DNA of 33,340 nt from the IMG/VR virus record IMGVR_UViG_3300035562_000038, positions 1 through 33,340 of that record; one strand, written 5' to 3'. This document shows, piece by piece, positions 2,068-32,083 of the stretch. The translations under genes and the position numbers were made by a program. The notes under the pieces were generated by a model, which made no database searches, had not been told where the DNA came from, and saw only the letters and a list, made by a program, of their open reading frames with translations. Numbering within the stretch: position 1 is the first letter of the stretch; each line of letters begins with the position of its first letter. The stretch is from a virus. Its lineage: Duplodnaviria > Caudoviricetes.

Positions 2068-4986
2068 TCACTCGAAATCGTTGTAACTGCTGTTCACCTT
2101 GGCGCGCGCCTGCCGTTCTCTCGCATCCAACTGCCTGGCGACTTCCCGCGCGATATCCAACGCGCTCTGTCCTGGCTGCGGATTGATGGTTATCGGCGCG
2201 TGTATCTCGACAATCGGCGCATTGGTACGCTGATATGATGCGCTGCCGGCTGAGCGGTATTGGTTCCCGGCCAGGCTGTGCGGGTGTAGCGGAGCGTCCG
2301 CTGCTGTTGCGCCATTCATGAACAGGGTGGCGATTGCTGCCATTGCTGCGGTGTTTCGGCGGCTGGTTACGTTTGCCGGCCCGCTGACGATTTCCGGCCC
2401 ATACTCTCCGACAATGCCGAATTTACCCAGCGGGATACGGCCGCCGTTGTCATGCTCTCCGGTGTAGCGATAGCGTATTGCATCAGCTGAATTTCCTGTC
2501 GGCCCTGGCGTCATCATGACACCGGCGCGGCGGGCCGCATCGGCAACGGCAGGGTTTTCCTGCGTCAGTTTGCGCGTTTCTGCCGACCGTACTTTGATTT
2601 CGTCCAGCTTATCCAGTACCCATTTGATTGAGTCCGTCAGCAGTTTCAGTGGGGTTAGCGCCATCTCAATGCCTGCCGCCAGAAATTCGCCGAAGGTCTT
2701 CCCGGCCGATGCCGCGCTGTCCAAATTGTCTTTTGTCGATTTCACCGGCGTCAGCAAATCTGTGAACCAGCCCCACAACGCTTTAACCTTGTCGCCTATC
2801 CAGTTGAATACTGGCATCAATGGTGCAAAAGCGTCTTTGATCGGTGCGGCGGCGTTTTTGAATCCTTCGACAACACCGCCGAGAAACGCCTTGATAGGCT
2901 TCCAGTATTTGTAAATCAGCACACCAGCGCCGACGATCGCGGCCGCAATCAGTCCCAGCGGGCTGAGTAGAATGCCGAACATACTCGCCAAGCCGCCGAG
3001 GGCGAAGCGGAGGAATCTCAGCGGTGAGGTTGCCAGCCAGGTAAATACGCGCCCAACTCCTTTCATCCCCTTGGCGGCTGTCTGTAGTGGTGATGATGCA
3101 AATGTCATTACTGCGCGGCTGGCGTTCCCTAACCCTTGCTTGGAGAATGTCAGCGCGCTTTTCCCTGCTTCAAGTAATGAGCGGCTGAAGCTCCCGACTT
3201 GCTTTTTAGTGATAGGCGTCGTACTGGCGAATTTCAGCATGCTGAGTGAGAGGTTAGGCAGCAGGCGAATACCTAACATGCGGGTGCTGAACCGTAGCAG
3301 GGCAAACGGGCCGAGCAGCCCGACGACGGCGATCGCCAGCGTACCGAAAACGGTCGTTGCAATAGCGGCTGCTGCCCCTATCTTAACAATGGCGGCGCTT
3401 ATGTTGGGGTGCGCTTTTAAAAACTCAGCGACGCCGTGCAAAACGTTGCTGATACCTTTGGCCGTTTTCCGTAACCAAGCGTCGTTTTTTTCAAACAGTT
3501 CAACGCTGATATTTTCCAGGGCGGCATGTAGCATTGTCATGTCGCCTTTCATGTTATCCAGCATAGTGCCGGATACGCGCGCGGCCTCGCCATCATACTC
3601 GCCCGGCGCACCGCGCATTTTTTGCAGCTTGCCGTCTGATACCGCACGCATCAACTCACCGAATCCTGTGACGGCATACATGCCAGCAATATCTTTGAAA
3701 ATCTTACCGCGATCGACGTTCCCCATTTTGGACGTCTTCTTGTCGATATCTTTCAAAATATCGACCAGGTCGCGCATATTGCCGTCTTTGTCTTTGGTTT
3801 CGACGCCTAGTTTTCTGACGGTGGGGCTGTTGCCAATTCTGCTGAGAATAGCGCGCATTGCTGTACCAGCTTGGCTACCTTGAATGCCCGCGTTTCCCAT
3901 GATCGCCGTGGCGGCTGAAACGGTTTCCAGGCTTTGACCATATTCGCGGCCGACGCCGGCGGAATATTTCAATGACTCGCCCAGCATCGGAATATCAACG
4001 TTGTTCCGTGTGAACAGCGCGGTAAGCACGTCCGCCACTCTGTCCATTTTTTCCGCCGGGATCCCCATCGCGGTTTGAATGTTTGACGCAATATCGGCTG
4101 TCGTGCCCAGGTCAATGTCGCCGGCCGATGCCAGATTCAGCATCCCCGGCATGGCTTTTAATACCTGCTGCGGTGAATAACCCGTCCTCCCGAGGAAGTA
4201 TTGCCCCTCGGCAACCTGGAGATCGGTAAATTTTGACGATAGCGGCAGGGTTCTTGCCTGATGACGCATGGCCATCATTGCTGGATCTGACTTGGACGGG
4301 ATGCGCGTTACAGCCTGTGTTTTGCTCATCATCGCGTCAAAGTCATAACCGACGTGCAAGGCATTTGCCAGCCCGCGACCCATCGCGCGCCCGGTGGCCA
4401 TCGAGGTATAACCCACCCCGGCAGTCATGACTTTTCGCTGATTACTCTCGTCGAATTGATGGCGTGCAGCATTCAGCCGTTTTTGCTGCTGGGCCTGCTG
4501 CTCAAGTCTTCGCTGCTGTGCTGCAAGTGCGCCGGTTGTCCCGCTGATATTGGCGCGCAGCGATCGCTGGGCCTCACCAAGTCGGTTAGTCGCCATGCCG
4601 CTGTTTTGAAGCGCGGTGCGCTGGTTTTGCAGTGACAGCCGGAGATCTGAATATTTTTGCTGAAGGCGGGCCGCTTCCTCCCTGGCCTTCTGAAATTGGC
4701 GCGCCTGCCTGGCCGTCGGGGTTTCCGTTGATTTCATGGCGATAGACAGGCTGCGCGCTCTATCGCGGGCAGTGCTTAGCGCCTGCGCGGCTGCGGCTAC
4801 CTGGGCTTTTGTCTTACGGAAACCGTCAATTTTCCCAGCCTGATTATCCAGCTGTTTTAATTGGTCTTTGGTGGCTTTAACCGAAGCGGCCAGCGCTTTA
4901 TTGCTGGCCTGCATGGATTTAAACGGGCGGGTGACTTTATCGACCGCGCTCAGTAAAACCTGCAATCGGAGGTTTTTATCACTCAT
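2068..4986 (-). CDS. T: Tail tape measure protein
   Basis: MSDKNLRLQVLLSAVDKVTRP start; TP901-type core; hydrophobic segment; C-terminal GKFGIVGEYGPEIVSGPA. Confidence 0.93.
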   Translation of the reverse strand: MSDKNLRLQVLLSAVDKVTRPFKSMQASNKALAASVKATKDQLKQLDNQAGKIDGFRKTKAQVAAAAQALSTARDRARSLSIAMKSTETPTARQARQFQKAREEAARLQQKYSDLRLSLQNQRTALQNSGMATNRLGEAQRSLRANISGTTGALAAQQRRLEQQAQQQKRLNAARHQFDESNQRKVMTAGVGYTSMATGRAMGRGLANALHVGYDFDAMMSKTQAVTRIPSKSDPAMMAMRHQARTLPLSSKFTDLQVAEGQYFLGRTGYSPQQVLKAMPGMLNLASAGDIDLGTTADIASNIQTAMGIPAEKMDRVADVLTALFTRNNVDIPMLGESLKYSAGVGREYGQSLETVSAATAIMGNAGIQGSQAGTAMRAILSRIGNSPTVRKLGVETKDKDGNMRDLVDILKDIDKKTSKMGNVDRGKIFKDIAGMYAVTGFGELMRAVSDGKLQKMRGAPGEYDGEAARVSGTMLDNMKGDMTMLHAALENISVELFEKNDAWLRKTAKGISNVLHGVAEFLKAHPNISAAIVKIGAAAAIATTVFGTLAIAVVGLLGPFALLRFSTRMLGIRLLPNLSLSMLKFASTTPITKKQVGSFSRSLLEAGKSALTFSKQGLGNASRAVMTFASSPLQTAAKGMKGVGRVFTWLATSPLRFLRFALGGLASMFGILLSPLGLIAAAIVGAGVLIYKYWKPIKAFLGGVVEGFKNAAAPIKDAFAPLMPVFNWIGDKVKALWGWFTDLLTPVKSTKDNLDSAASAGKTFGEFLAAGIEMALTPLKLLTDSIKWVLDKLDEIKVRSAETRKLTQENPAVADAARRAGVMMTPGPTGNSADAIRYRYTGEHDNGGRIPLGKFGIVGEYGPEIVSGPANVTSRRNTAAMAAIATLFMNGATAADAPLHPHSLAGNQYRSAGSASYQRTNAPIVEIHAPITINPQPGQSALDIAREVARQLDARERQARAKVNSSYNDFE

Positions 4987-22199: not shown

Positions 22200-22544
22200 C
22201 TACAGCGTTGCCAGCATCAGCCTTTTATAGCCGGTTGTCTGCCAGCATTGCGTGTCACCTTGCATGCAGCACCCGCCCGGATCGCCCGGCAACGTGTCGC
22301 CGCATTTCCCACAGCTACTTTTACGCAGGTCGGCCAGCTGTTTCTGCAACAGCTTGTTGTCTTGTCGTATGAGGCCGATCAGGTATTCCGTCACCTCGTA
22401 AGGTTCCCTCGCGATCCGGCGCTGCTGGCAACCTTCCAGGATCATCGCCATTTCCTGGCTATCGACGCGCAGAGTGATCGTGGTGATGCCGTTGGCCTTG
22501 TCGCGCTGGCGCTGGCTGCGTTTACGTTCTGCTGGTGTGGTCAT
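22200..22544 (-). CDS. Small phage protein: basic N-terminus, RHH-like middle, Cys-rich C-terminus
   Basis: MTTPAERKRSQRQRD...ITLRVD...YLIGLIRQD...CGKCGDTLP...GCCMQGDTQCW; ATG lies 1 nt after the MTase stop. Confidence 0.8.
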   Translation of the reverse strand: MTTPAERKRSQRQRDKANGITTITLRVDSQEMAMILEGCQQRRIAREPYEVTEYLIGLIRQDNKLLQKQLADLRKSSCGKCGDTLPGDPGGCCMQGDTQCWQTTGYKRLMLATL

Positions 22545-22545
22545 G

Positions 22546-23247
22546 CTACACGTCCCCATTTTGATGAGTAGAAAGAAGTGCTGCCAGTATGGCAAGGCGT
22601 TCCGCTGCCGGTAGATCGCTATAATTTCTGGCCCAACGTTCGGCTTTTCTCTTGATGCGTTGTCGATCGATATAGTTCGCGCCGGCAAACGCCGCGCTGT
22701 ATGCAGCATTCTGGGCATAATTCATCCATAACTTTTCAGTGCGTGGCCCTCCGCGCGTCATCACCTGAAATTCCATGCTACGCCAGTCGCCGAGCAACTC
22801 GTCGTAGAGTGCGGACGGATAGCCGGAGATCATGACGTTGGCGGGCACGCTGCGTAACACGTCGATCAGGCGGCGGTGATCGTCGACGGTATACTCGTGA
22901 CGATACCGCGCGCGGCTGGTGCGGGTTTCTGGAAGATAAGGCGGGTCGACGTAGATCAGCGTGCGACCGTATTTTTCAAAAGGAACGGCGCGCAACAGCT
23001 TAACCGCGTCGCCGATCTCAATCATAAGGCGATCGGCCTGTTCATCCAGATAATCCGGGTTTCCCTGGCAAAATGCCTCAACGGTTTCCGGATCGATATC
23101 CCACCCGATCGTGCGGGCAGCCGGCGGCTTACGCAGCATAATGGCACCGCCGCCGAGGTGTGTTTCGATGTAGGTGTCGTGTGGTGGCATCTGGCTGATT
23201 ATTGCCTGGTATGCGCCGCTTGCGGCCTTGCTTCCTAAATATCCCAT
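22546..23247 (-). CDS. DNA N6-adenine methyltransferase (D12/Dam-like fold), short form
   Basis: GYLGSK (motif X), YIETHLGGG (I), GWDID (II), YVDPPY (IV), MISGY; alternative start at 23262. Confidence 0.88.
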   Translation of the reverse strand: MGYLGSKAASGAYQAIISQMPPHDTYIETHLGGGAIMLRKPPAARTIGWDIDPETVEAFCQGNPDYLDEQADRLMIEIGDAVKLLRAVPFEKYGRTLIYVDPPYLPETRTSRARYRHEYTVDDHRRLIDVLRSVPANVMISGYPSALYDELLGDWRSMEFQVMTRGGPRTEKLWMNYAQNAAYSAAFAGANYIDRQRIKRKAERWARNYSDLPAAERLAILAALLSTHQNGDV

Positions 23248-23259
23248 TAGTCGGTACCC

Positions 23260-23460
23260 CATAGTTGATAATGACGGTGCTGCAGAACAGATATTTCTGT
23301 CTATGCGGTACCAGCAACATCAGCTGGCACAGTTGGAACCGTCTATATTTGCCGGCATGGCCAGAACAGGTATTTCTGTCTATGCGGTACCGGCACCAGG
23401 CGGCACAGATGCCACCGTCTATATTTTTCTGTATGGCCAGAACAGATATTCCTGTCTGTG
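23260..23460. repeat. Array of six 20-bp bipartite quasi-palindromes, organised as ~2.3 tandem units of 76-79 bp
   Basis: MAYAGNT-N6-GWCKRTR at 23260, 23286, 23328, 23365, 23404, 23441; higher-order units start at 23283, 23362, 23438. Confidence 0.9.
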
Positions 23461-23473
23461 CTCGATGTAATTT

Positions 23474-25939
23474 TTATGCCCCAGCGATGGTATTTACTCG
23501 GCCTCGTGCCAAAGCTTGCCAGCGGGATACCAAGTCTGTGGCCTTATGTTTTGCTAGTGATTTACGCCACTGCGGATCCATACCAACAACGATCAGTTCT
23601 CCGGTTACCAGGTTCGCTCGATAAACGGTATCCAGCACAGTGACCTCTTTCCCCAATGCCAGTTGATTAGCTTGATGCTCGCTCACTGTGATTTTTCTGA
23701 TCTTCGCCCAGCGCTGCACCTGCTCAGCGACGCCTGCGACCAATGGCGTAACCTTTTCTTCCATCTGCCTGAGTGACTGCGCGGCGCGCAGGTAACTTTC
23801 GGCCCGCTGGCGATCCGGTTCGGTGCATTCGCCCGCCGTAAGGGCATAAGCCAGCGCCTCAAACTCTTCGGCAGGGGACTTTTTCCGATCCGGTTTGTGG
23901 TTTCGAAGACTTTCGGCAAGCTTTTTGCGCCTGCTGGCCGATTTTTGGCCGATTTCAAGCTGTTCCGGCCCTATATCCAGTGGCGGATCATCGTGCGAAT
24001 CTGGTTGCTTTTTGACCGTGGTACAGTTATTGACACGAGTCCAAGGGGGCGCAGACGCGCCCTGAAGGTCAAGGTCAACCCCATGATCGGCGTCGGCCGA
24101 TGGTTGCGGCTTCATTCTGACAATGCGGAATTTTCGAAGGCGGGTTTCAACCGGCGGGATGTCTGCGGTTGGCATCACCAACCCTTTAATCACCGAAATG
24201 TATTCGCCGTAATCATTCGGTTCGTCTTTGATTTGATACCAGGTGCGGACGCGCAGGTCTTTGCGAAGGACAAACGGCCCGCCCTGCAATAAGGTGTATT
24301 CGCGCCAGTCAGCACCATCGGCGGCACGATGCAGCTCACCAAATAGCGGATTGATCTGGTCTGCCAGTTGTTGATTACGCATGCGGCGCAACTCGCGCCA
24401 AACAGATACCGGTGCACCGCCGAGAAACTGGAATTGACGGATTCCCCAGCATGACGCCCAGGCGGTAGCATGCCTGGCGGTTTCCTTTAATGGACGTCCG
24501 CTTTCGTCGTCTGTCAGCCCGTCCAGTGCATAGCCGTCGACGTTTTTGGATATGTACTTGACGATATAACCCGTTGCACTGCCGACGCTTTCATCGATCG
24601 GCTTCATTTCAAATCGCGGCTGTTTACCGTGGCTGCCGGCAAGTTCTTCGGCATCTTCGCGCGTCGCGTAATCCCGCATGATCTCGCGCAGCGGCTCAAC
24701 GTTTTCTGCTGTGGTGAATAGCAGGCCGTGCCAGTGCGGCGTTCCATCATGATGTGATTCGGCAACGCGCAGGCCAAACGCCGGGATATCCCTTCGCTTG
24801 AGTTCCGCCCGGATTTGTTGCCATACGCGGTTTAGATAACGCTGCGTCTTGCGAGGGTTTGCTCCATTCCACTTGCTGTTACGGTGGCCGCTATAGCTGA
24901 ATGCGTGATAACTGGAAGGGGCTGTTAAGGTAAAAAAGCTGCCGGTAAACCCTTCCTGTGTCGCGACCTTTTCGAAACCGCCGATGCGGGTCATCAACTC
25001 GTTGCGGCGCTTTTCCGGGTTTGAAATACTCTTATCGATTTGCTCTATGAGCGATATTCTTTCGCCAGTGTCCTGATCTTCCAGTTCCAGCTTGCTCATG
25101 ATCGCGCGGCTGCGCTTGCGGCGCTGATCCCATTCCTCAGCATGATGCTTGCTGCAATAAGGGGAAATACCCCGACGAACGTCACCAAAGGCAATGTGTA
25201 AATGTTCGCGCCACCGGATGGCATATTTACGCAGGTTGCGCTGCCAATAGCGCGCATCGCGCATCTTTTGGACGGCTACCACTGCCTCATCTACCCATAT
25301 AGTCTTTTTGGCAGATAGGGGCGGATTAGCCTGGAACATTGCGGTAAGTGCGGAGGCCTCCCGATAGAGCCGCATAGCCAGTTCCCGATCGCCTAACGCT
25401 TCCAGTGTTTCATTTACTTCACTCAACATCGCAGTCATGTAAATCGCAATATCCTGCGCCAACAGCTCAATATCTTCGTCGGTGAAGTCAGGAAGCCGAT
25501 TGAAACGCTCAATCAGCCCGCGCAGGTGTGAAAAGTTATGATAAAGCGCGTCAAGGTGCACAAATGGCGGGAGATCTTCGCCGTCGCCTTTAATAGCGTA
25601 TTCACCGGTGACGCGGGTGATAATCGGCAGATCACGGCGAGCAATATCGCGCAGTTTCAGGCGGGCAATGTGTCGGCCTTTAGTACTGTGAAAGTGGTTG
25701 ATTCGGTCACTCAGTCGCCGACGAATAAAGCGCGGTAGTGGTGCCAGGGTGCGCTGTACCCATGCGCCAAACTCCTGCTCTTGAGCCAGCTCAACGAGAT
25801 CAACAGAAGGAGTCTTGTCCACATGGATAGCCGCTTTGGGCTTATTCCATGCATGGGGGTAGTCAGAAACGTCCGCGCCGCTGCCAGGGTATGGCAACGG
25901 CGGTGATGGTTCATAGCGGCCGCGAATGGGTTTACTCAC
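23474..25939 (-). CDS. A: Rolling-circle replication initiator A (HUH endonuclease)
   Basis: FFTLTAPS, ESHHDGTPHWHG, GYIVKYISKNVDG, IRQFQFLG; GTG 25939 overlaps the upstream stop (ORF track starts at 25984). Confidence 0.95.
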   Translation of the reverse strand: MSKPIRGRYEPSPPLPYPGSGADVSDYPHAWNKPKAAIHVDKTPSVDLVELAQEQEFGAWVQRTLAPLPRFIRRRLSDRINHFHSTKGRHIARLKLRDIARRDLPIITRVTGEYAIKGDGEDLPPFVHLDALYHNFSHLRGLIERFNRLPDFTDEDIELLAQDIAIYMTAMLSEVNETLEALGDRELAMRLYREASALTAMFQANPPLSAKKTIWVDEAVVAVQKMRDARYWQRNLRKYAIRWREHLHIAFGDVRRGISPYCSKHHAEEWDQRRKRSRAIMSKLELEDQDTGERISLIEQIDKSISNPEKRRNELMTRIGGFEKVATQEGFTGSFFTLTAPSSYHAFSYSGHRNSKWNGANPRKTQRYLNRVWQQIRAELKRRDIPAFGLRVAESHHDGTPHWHGLLFTTAENVEPLREIMRDYATREDAEELAGSHGKQPRFEMKPIDESVGSATGYIVKYISKNVDGYALDGLTDDESGRPLKETARHATAWASCWGIRQFQFLGGAPVSVWRELRRMRNQQLADQINPLFGELHRAADGADWREYTLLQGGPFVLRKDLRVRTWYQIKDEPNDYGEYISVIKGLVMPTADIPPVETRLRKFRIVRMKPQPSADADHGVDLDLQGASAPPWTRVNNCTTVKKQPDSHDDPPLDIGPEQLEIGQKSASRRKKLAESLRNHKPDRKKSPAEEFEALAYALTAGECTEPDRQRAESYLRAAQSLRQMEEKVTPLVAGVAEQVQRWAKIRKITVSEHQANQLALGKEVTVLDTVYRANLVTGELIVVGMDPQWRKSLAKHKATDLVSRWQALARGRVNTIAGA
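24023..24052 (-). other. Replication origin (A nick site) inside gene A
   Basis: Minus strand GCGCCCCCTTG|GACTCGTGTCAATAACTGT resembles P2 ori GCGCCTCG|GAGTCCTGTCAATAACTGT. Confidence 0.8.
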
Positions 25940-26322
25940 GCCAACGGCCACTCGTCTAAGTAAAACCACGGCGAGTTTTGCCACTTACGCGACAAAATAT
26001 TGACCGATACCAGTGTTAAACCGCCAGTGGCGTAGTTGCGTTTAAATACGCACTCAACTGACTGGTCTGGGCCGCTGGCAGGGTCATAACTGACTATCCT
26101 GTCCATAAGAGGCTGCTTTCTTCTGGCATGAAGAAGTCTCAGTGTCGCACCTGCGGAAAGCTTGAACGCTGCGCGTATCAGCTCCTGTTGGCGGGCTGCG
26201 TAGGTTTTCCCATAGCGGCGACCTCCGCAGGTGAAAACAGGCTGTACATGATAATTTTGGATGTGATCGTGGCGGCCCAAAATAGCAGCAATAACAAGAG
26301 CGGCATTAGTTTTGCGCATCAT
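25936..26322 (-). CDS. Hypothetical protein with terminase-like short motifs
   Basis: Overlaps both neighbours by 4 nt; contains GGRRYGKT, SYDPASGPDQS and FYLDEW. Confidence 0.7.
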   Translation of the reverse strand: MMRKTNAALVIAAILGRHDHIQNYHVQPVFTCGGRRYGKTYAARQQELIRAAFKLSAGATLRLLHARRKQPLMDRIVSYDPASGPDQSVECVFKRNYATGGLTLVSVNILSRKWQNSPWFYLDEWPLA

Positions 26323-27368
26323 TCACATACCCCCGCATAAACGCTACTGCAACCGGTGTGATCGTTCATGGCGGCGATCAAATCGAACTGCTGCCCGCCC
26401 CTGGTGGTTAGGGCCCAATCGCGATAGGTTTCGATGCCATGCGATTCAACCGTGATGCACTCGATTCGGCTTTCCGCCTTTTTCGGATCTTGCGTAGCAG
26501 GAAAGAAGACGCTGTTCTGGCGACGAGAACAAGCGGCGACCAGCTTTTCCCATCGAGCAACGCGGGCTATCTCTTCCGGCCAACGGGTAAAAATCTCGGC
26601 CAGCTCGGATTTGCATGCGTGAATGCATGGCATGCAGCCGACGCGGCTACAGCCTTGTGTGTACAACGGATTCGGCTTGATGCCGTGATGTTTGGCAATC
26701 GCAAAGACGTCGGCATGTTTCCAATCGAGAATTGGCCGATAAATATTTAGGCCTGGCGTTTTATCGGCATCGCTTTCCCACGCGGGCAATCCCGCGCGTT
26801 GCGGCGATTCCTCCGCCCTAACCCCTTGCCAACTGATCACCTCGTCATACTCGTCTAGCAAAGGCGCAACCAGCTGATCGCGGATCGGGATGTGCTTTAA
26901 CTCGAATGTGCAGAAGCGGACCATTGTTGACGGAAAACGACCCTTCCACATGCAGAGATCAAGGAATGGCACGCCGGTTGGATGAAGGGTTTCAAGTGCC
27001 AGGGCAACGGTCTTTTTTGCCTCTTGCTCAGTCAGCCCACACTCAGTAACAAGTGATACGGGCCAGCGCTCGGCAATAAACCGGCGCTTACCTTCAATAC
27101 GCGCGGTAAAGTCGGCTTTAACGCGGCGAATCGGCCCTAACTTGGATTCGAGATAATCCAGGTATTTCATTGTTAACGGGTGTTCGTGGCCGGTGTCAGC
27201 AAATGCGGCAATAATCTTGACGCCGGCAGCAAGTGCAAGCAGCCATTGCGCCAGGCTGTCTTTGCCGCCGGAAATACTGATCACGTTTATGGCGTCGGTA
27301 GCGAAGACGCGATCGTCGATCAGTGCCGTTCCGGCAGGATATGAGATAGCACGCGAAGGTATCAGCAT
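26319..27368 (-). CDS. PAPS reductase (CysH/DndC-like) family protein
   Basis: SISGGKDS PP-loop, DTGHEH, RFCTFELK, GVRAEES, RVGCMPC. Confidence 0.88.
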   Translation of the reverse strand: MLIPSRAISYPAGTALIDDRVFATDAINVISISGGKDSLAQWLLALAAGVKIIAAFADTGHEHPLTMKYLDYLESKLGPIRRVKADFTARIEGKRRFIAERWPVSLVTECGLTEQEAKKTVALALETLHPTGVPFLDLCMWKGRFPSTMVRFCTFELKHIPIRDQLVAPLLDEYDEVISWQGVRAEESPQRAGLPAWESDADKTPGLNIYRPILDWKHADVFAIAKHHGIKPNPLYTQGCSRVGCMPCIHACKSELAEIFTRWPEEIARVARWEKLVAACSRRQNSVFFPATQDPKKAESRIECITVESHGIETYRDWALTTRGGQQFDLIAAMNDHTGCSSVYAGVCE

Positions 27369-27370
27369 TT

Positions 27371-27697
27371 CTACTTATCCTCCGGCGCAGCCGCTAGCAT
27401 GGCGGCGTAGATGTTGCCGAAGTTCACGCAGAAACTTTCGTCGGCGTTGAACGTGACATCGTCGCAGTTCATGGCTGCGGCGATCATGTCTTCGGTTGGC
27501 TCTACCGGCACCAACTTGTAACCGCCACCTCCAGTTTGAGCGAGTATTGCAGCGCGGCAGGCATCCCATATTGTTTTAGGGTCAGCGCCACATTCAACAA
27601 ACCCTTCGCACTCTGTGTAAATCACGTCAAAGACAGATTTCGGCACGGTTTTCGGTATTGCTGGGGTTGGCTTCGGTTGCGTGGCTTTGGTACTCAT
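27371..27697 (-). CDS. Eaa/Ead-like phage early protein
   Basis: WDACRAAIL...GYKLVPVEPTEDMIAA...IYAAMLAAAP modules; ATG 27697 overlaps the dam stop. Confidence 0.7.
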   Translation of the reverse strand: MSTKATQPKPTPAIPKTVPKSVFDVIYTECEGFVECGADPKTIWDACRAAILAQTGGGGYKLVPVEPTEDMIAAAMNCDDVTFNADESFCVNFGNIYAAMLAAAPEDK

Positions 27698-28515
27698 GCG
27701 GATGCCCTCATTGTTGCGATGATCTCGCCAGCGGTTGCGCGGCTGGTAGCTTTGGCGCTGACAGAACGGCGTGCGGTGGCGGTGGTGATGGTGAAATCGG
27801 AATACAGCTCCCGCGCGGCGTCTGTTTCGCTGTTCGAGGCCACGACGTGGCGGCCGCGTTTTGCCGCGATGCGCAGCATACGCGCCAGCTTTCTCTGCTG
27901 TTCGCTGGTAAAGCCGTCGGTGTGGTAGCTGGTGAAATTGGCGGTGGCGCTGGCTGGGATGTAGGGCGGATCGCAATAAATCACGTCGCCGGCCTGTGCC
28001 ATCCTGATCGCTTCCTGGAATGTGCAGCACAGGAAAATCGCCTTTGTGGCCTGCGCCTTCTCAGAGAACGCCCGGATCTCGTCTTCGGGGAAATAGGGGG
28101 CTTTTCGATGACCGAACGGCACATTAAACTCGCCGCGCAGGTTGTAGCGGCAAACGCCGTTGAATCCGTGGCGGTTCAGGTAAAGGAATTGCGCGGCGCG
28201 GTACAGGAAATTACTGTCGCAGCGCAGATTGAAATCGGCGCGTACAGCGTAATATCCGGCCTCGCTGGCGTGCTCCCTGAACAGGTTGCGCGCTTCGCGG
28301 ATCAGGACGTCCGGCAGGTTTTTGGCGACGTTGTGGAAGTTGATCAGATCGCTGTTGATATCGCACAGCAGATAGCTTTCATAGTCGGTGTTGAGAAACA
28401 CCGCGCCACTGCCGACGAACGGTTCAACCAGCCGCTTTCCGGCTGGCAGGTGCTGGCGCAGCGTGTCTATTATGCTGGCCTTGCTGCCTAGCCATTTCAT
28501 GGCTGGGCGGTTCAT
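27694..28515 (-). CDS. dam: DNA adenine methylase Dam
   Basis: KWLGSK, LVEPFVGSGAV, YLNRHGFNGVCRYN, FNVPFG, YCDPPY; the GATC-recognition hairpin motif is retained. Confidence 0.93.
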   Translation of the reverse strand: MNRPAMKWLGSKASIIDTLRQHLPAGKRLVEPFVGSGAVFLNTDYESYLLCDINSDLINFHNVAKNLPDVLIREARNLFREHASEAGYYAVRADFNLRCDSNFLYRAAQFLYLNRHGFNGVCRYNLRGEFNVPFGHRKAPYFPEDEIRAFSEKAQATKAIFLCCTFQEAIRMAQAGDVIYCDPPYIPASATANFTSYHTDGFTSEQQRKLARMLRIAAKRGRHVVASNSETDAARELYSDFTITTATARRSVSAKATSRATAGEIIATMRASA

Positions 28516-29357
28516 AGGTCACCGCCTTCGACGCTGGAATCGACAATCTCGAATCCGATCAGCACCATGTCGTCATAAATTGCCCCGATAGAGGCGGGCG
28601 CAACCAAAGCATTGATGATGCCCACCATGCCTATGAGGTAGTAGCCATCATAAAAGCCAACCGATGTTTCTTTAGCCAATTTCTCAGAGCAAAAGACACG
28701 GTTATTGACCAGTGCTGTAATCGCGGCGTGGTCTACCTGCAATAACCTGTTAAGGATATCGACAGCTTTCTGTGCCGTAATTCCGTGCGATGCGAGGCGA
28801 TCACTTCCGGCCGCCATTGCCTTAATCACGCCGAGAGTGGTCAGGCAGTCTGAAAGGGCGCGATGCGGCGTTCCTTCAATAATGACGCCTTGCTGTTCAG
28901 CGGCGGCGGTTAACTTCTGCCATTTGTACCCGCCACGCTCGCTGTTCTGGCCGTAGAATTCGGCGTAGGCCAGCATTGCGCATTCAAACGTTGGTCGCTC
29001 GATTTTAAAGTGAATCGTGATCCCCCAATTATCATTGGTCTGATCAAGAATCCGGGTGTCGAAATCACTGTTGTAAATCACGACTTTGCGCCCGCTGATG
29101 ATGTCGTAAAGACTGCGGCACACATGCGGCCAGGATGGCGCAGTCTTTACCATTTCGTTTGTAATGCCGTGAATGGCTGTCGCGGAGGCAGGGATCACGC
29201 TTCGCGGTTTTACCAGCGTGTTCAGCAGAACCCGGCCGGCCGTGTCGATGATGGTGACTTCTACGATCTCGGCATCTTCTCCAAGGCCGGTGGTTTCGGT
29301 GTCCAGAATCAGGCAGTTTTCGCGCAACCATTGCTGCGCTTTCTGTTGTGGTGTCAT
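28512..29357 (-). CDS. DEDDh 3'-5' exonuclease with extra C-terminal domain
   Basis: ILDTETTG, YNSDFD, HRALSD motifs; about 95 additional C-terminal residues. Confidence 0.88.
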   Translation of the reverse strand: MTPQQKAQQWLRENCLILDTETTGLGEDAEIVEVTIIDTAGRVLLNTLVKPRSVIPASATAIHGITNEMVKTAPSWPHVCRSLYDIISGRKVVIYNSDFDTRILDQTNDNWGITIHFKIERPTFECAMLAYAEFYGQNSERGGYKWQKLTAAAEQQGVIIEGTPHRALSDCLTTLGVIKAMAAGSDRLASHGITAQKAVDILNRLLQVDHAAITALVNNRVFCSEKLAKETSVGFYDGYYLIGMVGIINALVAPASIGAIYDDMVLIGFEIVDSSVEGGDL

Positions 29358-31519: not shown

Positions 31520-32083
31520 GTGGAAGATTTATTTTTTGCCTACATCACAGCGAGCAAGAAAGTTTCATCTTATGGCCTGTCTTCACCTGAACGGGTTGGC
31601 GACTATGTTCAAGGCATTTGCATGCGTAGCGCCAGCTATAAGACATTTCGATTAGACCGCTTTATCGGCTTTTTCGGCGACATGCAGGAAGCCGAAGAGT
31701 ATGCAGAGAAGGTGCGCCAGTTCCTGCTTGAGTCCCCTGATGCTGAAGAATTGCCTATTTTTGCTGAGCTGCGGGAGCAGAAAAAATATAAACGGTATGA
31801 ATCCCCCGCAATGCTCAGGCCGCTTGACTTCAGCGGGCCGATGGAAATCTGTTTTACCGGATTCAAGAAGGATGACAAGGTGCGGCTTTCCGCTGTTGCC
31901 TCAGAACATGGAATGATCGTTAGAAGCGACGTCACCGTAAACCTTCACTTCCTTTGCGGTGGCTACAACGCCGGCCCGAAAAAATTAGAGGTAGCTCGTA
32001 AAAAGGGCACTCTCATTTTAAGGGAGGACGAATTTTTATCCCTGGTTGCAACTGGTGAGTTGCCTGATGACTATGACAGGTAA
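31520..32083 (+). CDS. WYL-like + BRCT domain protein
   Basis: N-terminal YVQGIC...YKTFRLDRF (WYL-like); C-terminal EICFTGF...VTVNLHFLCGGYNAGPKKLEVAR (ligase/RFC-type BRCT); AAGGAG RBS, GTG start. Confidence 0.8.
   Translation: MEDLFFAYITASKKVSSYGLSSPERVGDYVQGICMRSASYKTFRLDRFIGFFGDMQEAEEYAEKVRQFLLESPDAEELPIFAELREQKKYKRYESPAMLRPLDFSGPMEICFTGFKKDDKVRLSAVASEHGMIVRSDVTVNLHFLCGGYNAGPKKLEVARKKGTLILREDEFLSLVATGELPDDYDR

Follow-up and report, generated by a model that had tools for sequence, protein, structure and literature searches.

The window analyzed here, the whole 33,340-nt (33.3-kb) stretch of viral DNA, is a P2-like prophage, as seen from Pfam matches for portal, terminase, capsid, gene A, and integrase. 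Its Dam-like methylase gene, whose closest named relatives are from Serratia, follows the replication gene A on the same (minus) strand, and an array of six 20-bp units (Table 1) fills the 226 bp that separate the stop of gene A (23474) from the start of the methylase gene (23247). Unit 6 overlaps the translation-initiation region of the methylase gene, an in-frame ATG of which is also found at 23262, and a promoter scan of the array gave no sigma-70 promoter. Of the 193 loci with an upstream ORF, 155 have a gene A homologue cluster upstream of the methylase. The downstream ORFs, in contrast, fall into 60 clusters among 182 loci (by crude ORF picking), and the phrog_536 gene found there in the window is cargo, not a conserved partner of the methylase. 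For this reason, we dropped it as a dyad binder, a role that an earlier note on this DNA had suggested for the methylase or its neighbor, and as a fixed output. The loci show no conserved cognate endonuclease of the type II restriction-modification kind, the downstream neighbor being variable and the upstream one being gene A, Zot, or variable. There is no KorB or ParB among the 20 window ORFs scanned.

Table 1. Coordinates of the array and adjoining features in the window (+5 bases are counted outward from the half-site, with their strand in parentheses)
Feature	Position	Strand	Remarks
phrog_536 "transcriptional regulator," downstream of the methylase	22200..22544	-	phrog match
Upf31-family Dam-like (D12) amino-methyltransferase, 233 aa	22546..23247	-	Pfam PF02086, E 8e-7
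Basic C-terminal helix pair, residues 192-231	22555..22674	-	helices 192-210 and 214-231 (predicted model)
Q196	22660-22662	-	co-varies with half-site position 4
Catalytic motif IV DPPY, residues 101-104	22936..22947	-	invariant in 31/31 aligned homologues
Operator unit 6	23260..23279		CTGCAG, +5 A 23284 (+); GGTACC, +5 A 23255 (-)
Sole CTGCAG (PstI) site of the window	23280..23285		elsewhere 0, expected 14.3
Operator unit 5	23286..23305		GGTACC, +5 A 23310 (+); CTGCAG, +5 A 23281 (-)
Operator unit 4	23328..23347		GCCGGC/RCCGGY, +5 C 23352 (+); CAGCTG, +5 C 23323 (-)
Operator unit 3	23365..23384		GGTACC, +5 A 23389 (+); TGGCCA, +5 C 23360 (-)
Operator unit 2	23404..23423		CCWGG, +5 C 23399 (-)
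Operator unit 1 (first in transcription order)	23441..23460		CTCGAT (TCGA), +5 A 23465 (+); TGGCCA, +5 C 23436 (-)
P2-type replication gene A	23474..25984	-	Pfam Phage_GPA, E 2e-98

Distribution of the 8-4-8 dyad

As for the units themselves, the six 20-mers reported in the earlier note are all present, with start-to-start spacings of 26/42/37/39/37 bp, and so are the palindromic hexamers it listed in the linkers (GGTACC three times, TGGCCA twice, CAGCTG, GCCGGC, and CTGCAG). The 6-nt center, described there as variable, is so only in part. Its position 1 is a purine and its position 6 a pyrimidine in 150 of 157 unique centers each; since the ends are constrained in this way, the unit is an 8-4-8 dyad, with a half-site consensus Y-A-Y-A-G-H-Y-R. 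Two unit types do alternate, but the alternation traces to a 76-79 bp two-unit duplication. A close relative (L166, also numbered L006) has four units. With a half-site matrix, five of the six window units are the top five of 12 window matches, the sixth being below the half-site cut-off. In agreement with the earlier note, the array is not a CRISPR: it lacks constant repeats, a regular period, and unique spacers, its linkers measure 5 to over 40 nt across homologue loci, and its flanks recur across distant genomes. LexA boxes, integron attC sites, and recombinase core sites were weighed by eye against their consensus sequences and dropped.

Arrays recur upstream of methylase homologues. We fetched 336 homologue loci and collapsed them by their upstream 250 bp to 216, which are phylogenetically non-independent; within 450 bp upstream, 168 of these have at least two units, 31 have one, and 17 none. 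Among a further 80 metagenome loci, the corresponding numbers are 63, 12, and 5. Upstream of 215 homologue loci, the half-site matrix matches 423 times within 300 bp (1.97 per locus), against 0.00-0.35 per locus in all other 300-bp bins within 3 kb, an enrichment that is partly circular because the matrix was seeded on the window units and trained on those upstream regions. In 18 of the 31 single-unit loci, the unit sits exactly between two boxes, TTGAC and TAnnnT, that are separated by 17 bp. In two loci related to these, an IS66 transposase adjoins the methylase gene. The methylase family also heads IS66-type elements (L142:9995-12206, L149:9992-12110, L136, L143, and L145) that occur in several copies in one genome bin and carry a single operator-like dyad in a sigma-70 promoter; on its -35 side, the +5 base is the C that pairs with the G in TTGAC and could be a mark for self-silencing.

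Units are not confined to methylase leaders. A search for a unit plus CTGCAG returned 44 viral loci, 31 of which have no methylase within 3 kb, and in many of the 27 inspected the pattern sits between tail genes. In P2-like phages, clusters are found after gene A, after tail-fiber genes, and between tail genes. The complete phages 3LV2017 and SEN5 have in-register sites (see below) at 8 of 17 and 7 of 13 relaxed matches, respectively, at several genome places. Units also occur inside coding sequences, namely, gene A and the small terminase gene of 3LV2017, klcB of plasmid pBP136, and the methylase gene of a Shewanella plasmid.

Several arrangements were seen among individual loci. In L514, L526, and L533, units lie on both sides of the methylase gene. 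In four phages (L072, L105, L109, and L271), the module directly follows a Zot-type gene (Pfam-confirmed in L072 and L271), and three of the four have a promoter unit within the array. In L501, L507, L509, L522, and L535, near position 3000, satellite units lie between the gene for tail-fiber assembly and that for the sheath, within a few bases of a TGT-N12-ACA box resembling the Ogr-activated late promoter. The homologue of Klebsiella phage 3LV2017 (L545:8439-9014) stops after ~190 residues, without the C-terminal helices, like the R751 allele; this phage nevertheless keeps its eight in-register units, and 11 other Klebsiella phage records match methylase residues 1-175 only. On a conjugative plasmid of Acinetobacter, two clusters lie 3 and 16 kb away from the methylase gene (L542:23018-23079 and 36163-36315), in the leader of which no units were detected. 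No operator was found in the upstream stretch examined of five sphingomonad plasmids (L111, L115, L117, L118, and L121) and a Vibrio plasmid (L543), the sphingomonad homologues coming after a zeta-toxin-domain gene.

Judging from sequence statistics, the repeats behave as double-stranded DNA operators, not RNA hairpins. The earlier note had proposed that most units form G-U-containing hairpins on the coding (minus) strand, perhaps as a multi-hairpin guide RNA that is processed into 37-40-nt units and guides the methylase. The array does lie on a probable transcript and its region folds better than shuffled sequences (z -4.7), but the opposite strand folds equally (z -4.6), so folding is uninformative. 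Among 225 unique arm pairs, G-U combinations are no more favored than A-C (168 and 178, against 178 and 189 expected), and a median of 5-6 of 8 pairs form. When left arms were compared within 123 unique arrays, the own right arm proved a better pairing partner than the right arms of other units only at positions 6-7 of 8. Structured noncoding RNA would show strand-specific pairing that tolerates G-U and is kept by compensatory changes; this was not seen in these arms, and there is no Rfam match (E up to 5). Variable linkers, single units, units far from the gene or inside coding sequences, and the dyad symmetry of the +5 rule described below also speak against such a guide. A hairpin guide of RNA or single-stranded DNA was therefore rejected on the arm-pair statistics, and the RNA version is hardly credible. 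TIGR-Tas, CRISPR, and box C/D systems similarly combine an array of modular units with a small effector, and the five-base register recalls the box C/D guide rule; here, however, there is no constant period, no unique spacers, and no RNA pairing signal, and units also act as single promoter operators.

Restriction sites in register with the dyad

The palindromes in the linkers are recognition sites of restriction enzymes and keep a fixed register with the units, a point absent from the earlier note. Flanks on both sides of the units contain PstI, KpnI, MscI, PvuII, TaqI/XhoI, EcoRII, Cfr10I, Eco57I, and GATC sites, and the base methylated by the cognate enzyme lies exactly at +5, counted outward from the half-site. 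This holds for 11 of the 12 window flanks, the single exception being a T at +5 (23428) in the other flank of unit 2. The lone PstI site presents the target A of both strands at +5 of its two adjoining units. Across homologues, an A or C occupies +5 in 89% of the downstream flanks (171 unique) and in 71% of the upstream ones (221). A cognate target is at +5 in 164 of 206 unique downstream flanks and 129 of 243 upstream flanks; the corresponding maxima are 30 and 34 in letter shuffles and 67 and 59 in column shuffles. These counts used a 40-entry table of restriction-modification sites and methylated positions that was compiled after some arrays had been viewed and is therefore not blind. Position +6 also exceeds its controls (102/433, maximum 68), in part owing to GTAC and GATC, each of which the table enters twice, at different positions.

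The start offsets of the sites, which are table-free, are site-specific. Offset 1 accounts for CTGCAG (58/59), CTGAAG (8/10), and CTTCAG (10/10); offset 2 for GGTACC (60/66), TGGCCA (56/60), CAGCTG (11/14), and TCGA (48/59); and offset 4 for CCWGG (20/26) and RCCGGY (18/31). GATC is the poor case, with 10 of 36 in register (offset 4) and 14 of 36 one base off (offset 3). The register was found again in held-out material: 20 of 29 flanks in pBP136 (shuffle maximum 10), a conservative count since one of the 16 units was entered one base off; 12 of 17 flanks in Acinetobacter and Shewanella plasmids (shuffle maximum 5); and 38 of 86 new metagenome flanks (shuffle maximum 15). Single promoter operators show no restriction-site rule, with 3 of 20 on the -10 side. 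We consider it highly likely that the operator dyad and its +5 register are real.

The textbook methylated base of CCWGG is the second C. In supplementary rows of Blow 2016 (PMC4752239), the m6A positions agree for CTGCAG, CTGAAG, CTCGAG, and AGTACT, the m4C positions for CAGCTG and TGGCCA, and the m5C position for RCCGGY; CCWGG is written with its first C marked, GGTACC without a position, and GTCGAC is listed as m5C. Most of the verified cognate marks are thus m6A or m4C, amino-methyl marks that the methylase fold could copy. The commonest TCGA flank is CTCGAT (43/60). A MTCGAK methylase was rejected as its cognate because the known methylases of this site modify cytosine, off register, and not the +5 adenine (bioRxiv 10.1101/2021.12.28.474362; PMC9684165).

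Leader arrays appear to lack sites that their hosts always methylate through Dam and Dcm, with protein-based groups serving as proxies for host. In-register CCWGG occurs in 0 of 58 Klebsiella-type clade arrays and 15 of 55 arrays of a Serratia-type group; in-register GATC occurs in 0 of 113 arrays of two enterobacterial-type groups and 9 of 25 of a distant group. As a counter-example, one Klebsiella phage has a single in-register CCWGG, outside the leader. GATC and CCWGG are reported to be methylated in all 14 K. pneumoniae strains of Fu 2021.

Outside the array, some panel sites are depleted from the window, CTGCAG being joined by GGTACC (1, expected 6.1) and TGGCCA (2, expected 15.8), and others are not (CAGCTG 22, expected 22.4; GCCGGC 52; TCGA 145). 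A 35.9-kb stretch of pBP136 contains no CTGCAG (13.5 expected), one GTCGAC (14.4), no CTCGAG (11.7), and one TGGCCA (26.3); SEN5 and 3LV2017 show similar depletion. Relief of site avoidance in array-bearing phages was not seen for GGTACC or TGGCCA: their observed/expected ratios are 0.33 and 0.28 in 94 array-bearing phage loci and 0.26 and 0.26 in 57 control P2-like loci, in a comparison of unmatched regions that may include host DNA and in which only one of 58 portal-centered loci had the methylase gene. For CTGCAG, the picture is mixed, with ratios of 0.69 where the own array has the site, 0.31 where it does not, and 1.60 in controls. The methylase thus does not free these genomes from restriction, yet the array sites persist. 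The whole window also lacks CCGCGG (27.3 expected) and GGCGCC (29.7 expected), neither of which is in its array, so the panel is not simply a list of the most-avoided sites.

The methylase and its relation to Upf31

The predicted structure of the methylase (pLDDT 86) has E. coli Dam as its best fold match. The protein shares with Dam and DpnM, D12 enzymes of the alpha class, a common fold, the motif order, and motifs I and IV, the SAM-binding motif I being, like DPPY, invariant in 31/31 aligned homologues. It differs in lacking ~85 residues of the target-recognition domain (TRD) that lies between motifs III and IV, the alignment jumping from DpnM residue 73 to 169 across 11 query residues, and in having the added basic C-terminal helix pair. 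In addition, its specific site is a separate operator and its putative target lies outside that operator.

The C-terminal helix pair is the likely operator-reading module of the methylase. Where residue 196 is Q (104 loci), 91% of 570 half-sites have A at position 4; where it is N, H, Y, E, S, or A (67 loci), the share is 1-17%. Recognition of adenine by Gln is textbook knowledge. In a quick tree, used for nesting only, five Q196 rows nested among non-Q rows keep A, and Upf31 (E at 196) is on a separate long branch. This co-variation, a correlation among related sequences, is the best evidence that the methylase itself reads the dyad. A homodimer prediction scored 0.34 against a mark of 0.42 and was weighed neither for nor against a dimer.

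The methylase is 47.8% identical to Upf31 of the IncP-1beta plasmid pBP136 over 88% of the query (tblastn), and the two modules share a Dam-like N-terminal part, an Upf31-homologous C-terminal helical domain, and clustered 20-bp inverted repeats linked to the gene. The four repeat clusters of pBP136, located at oriV-trfA and tra-trb, consist of the same 8-4-8 dyad in the same +5 register, and one of the repeats lies within the upf31 promoter. The window differs in being a P2-like prophage, in having all six units in one leader, and in having A, not C, at half-site position 4. Elg 2025 (PMC11997246, where Thorsted 1998 is cited) calls the purpose of these four clusters unexplained, and restriction sites in register go unmentioned in the sections consulted. 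There, Upf31 represses its own promoter ~50-fold, for which the C-terminal domain is needed; its effects are plasmid-dependent and include changes in klcA and other genes under Kor control; a fitness cost arises only with the plasmid present; and loss of upf31 stabilizes the plasmid in E. coli. The same paper reports that SMRT sequencing detected no methylation by Upf31 expressed from a vector without plasmid or operators, and that Upf31 did not restore GATC methylation, the genomic DNA of dam-minus cells carrying pBP136Km staying MboI-sensitive; Upf31 was judged probably not to be a methylase and proposed to be a KorB partner. Since the SMRT assay used the gene alone, it did not test methylation at +5. 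Together, promoter geometry, protein-operator co-variation, and the published autorepression support the other proposal of the earlier note, a DNA-binding array for the methylase.

Possible roles of the methylase at the array

The reading that we favor, with a probability of about 0.4, is that an operator-anchored methylase marks the +5 bases and so creates pre-marked bait sites. It builds on several features found here: a conserved dyad with its +5 register, the absence of a TRD, catalytic motifs that are intact, and the co-variation of Q196 with position 4. The TRD-less methylase would bind the double-stranded dyad through its C-terminal helix, presumably as a dimer, which would hold the active site over the base five nucleotides outside each half-site and allow methyl transfer (m6A or m4C) on one strand. 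The prophage would thereby pre-mark a limited set of restriction sites from which the remainder of its genome has largely been cleared, and the marks may protect the few retained sites when the DNA enters a new host. In what is the weakest step, the purpose, hemimethylated sites at several places along related genomes would act as bait for the recipient's restriction-modification proteins, giving its methylase an advantage and keeping its nuclease engaged. Sites that are common elsewhere in the genome, such as TCGA and CAGCTG, and sites absent elsewhere would be of doubtful value as bait.

A possible but less probable alternative is that the protein binds and represses without writing, and that host methylation at +5 weakens binding, so that the element reads the restriction-modification content of its host through a panel of foreign sites. 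Pap/Lrp, Ag43/OxyR, and Mu mom are methylation-sensitive switches and thus precedents, with a regulator beside a methylatable base, and M.SsoII is a methylase that represses itself; these, however, involve one host methylase or the own site, whereas here some ten unrelated specificities fall on one register. A sensor would explain why the register matches the cognate methylase position even for m5C sites and why sites that hosts always methylate are missing from leader arrays, and it suits both the plasmid-dependent effects of Upf31 on Kor-regulated genes and the lack of detected methylation in Elg 2025 (PMC11997246). Writing is favored over reading because the SAM-binding and DPPY motifs are intact and because most verified cognate marks are m6A or m4C. 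The lone PstI site, which a reader would leave unprotected on entry, should need a mark that travels with the DNA, and CTCGAT, fitting MTCGAK whose methylases modify cytosine, suits a writer better. All nine +5 bases of PstI, SalI, and XhoI sites in the four, non-independent pBP136 clusters lie on one strand, which a nick consensus would make the transferred one. A sensor also lacks a conserved output gene and would not account for units inside coding sequences.

Against the writer, one pBP136 TGGCCA (MscI) has its +5 base on the other strand, and the XhoI and SalI targets of the inovirus L271 are on the strand read as non-packaged. No family member has been shown to methylate DNA to date, and Dam-type base flipping uses the TRD that is missing here. 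Single promoter operators do not follow the rule, and GATC is more often off register than in it. Given the genotypes of K-12 strains and the targets of Mrr and McrBC, the plasmid-dependent toxicity of Upf31 in such strains could reflect putative attack by these nucleases on marked sites. The main text of Elg 2025 (PMC11997246) mentions neither mrr nor SOS.

Upf31 and its repeats have been published as one member of the family, without the anchored-methylase design proposed here. Our search of the open-license literature found neither a +5 register of restriction-modification sites described nor a methylase anchored at an operator beside a panel of such sites. Older IncP-beta papers reportedly note clustered restriction sites near the inverted repeats and may anticipate part of the +5 finding. 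The +5 rule names the exact bases to inspect, making the IncP-1beta repeat puzzle directly testable, and links P2-like phages, Zot-bearing phages, IS66-type elements, and several conjugative plasmids through a shared module engaging host restriction. If the writer reading is true, an operator-anchored methylase with a fixed reach would be a compact tool for site-directed methylation.

Our tentative ranking places this writer and its bait sites ahead of the sensor, followed by templating, a guarded polylinker, a plain regulator, and the RNA guide, in that order. Templating, in which the flank held by the docked protein guides methylation of matching sites elsewhere in the element or its cargo, would allow a single protein of 230 residues, together with a shuffled DNA array, to overcome many restriction systems without a TRD, a new class of programmable enzyme. 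The missing TRD, the modular, reshuffled site panels, and clusters spread along genomes and beside cargo regions fit this idea, as does the fact that array bearers (P2-like phages, Zot-bearing phages, and conjugative plasmids) all have single-stranded phases. It is nevertheless unlikely: array-bearing loci avoid GGTACC and TGGCCA like the controls (from different regions), host GATC does not become MboI-resistant with pBP136 although its arrays hold in-register GATC, there is no hairpin selection, and we know of no precedent for duplex-to-duplex reading.

Quite improbable is a guarded polylinker or addiction module, in which the enzyme protects the sites and occasional cutting promotes cargo exchange or punishes gene loss. 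The cluster locations in P2-like phages and pBP136 would suit it, and the register follows protection, cut positions varying among the panel enzymes. Units inside essential genes argue against it, as does the stabilization of the plasmid upon upf31 loss in E. coli, and no cargo bracketed by split sites was seen in the loci viewed by eye. Even less plausible is a pure transcriptional regulator, a KorB-type co-repressor as proposed for Upf31, with the restriction sites as relics; autorepression and plasmid-wide expression changes are shown for Upf31, but site-specific offsets that persist across phages and three plasmid families, in sites depleted elsewhere, are not what relics would show.

Elsewhere in the window, the region upstream of gene A (26319-29357) contains a PAPS-reductase-domain gene, a second, full-length Dam-like methylase (27694-28515), and an exonuclease. 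The ORF directly before the integrase gene, near the expected repressor position (31520-32083), matches phrog_2561 "DNA ligase" and, weakly, a C-terminal segment of NAD-ligase.
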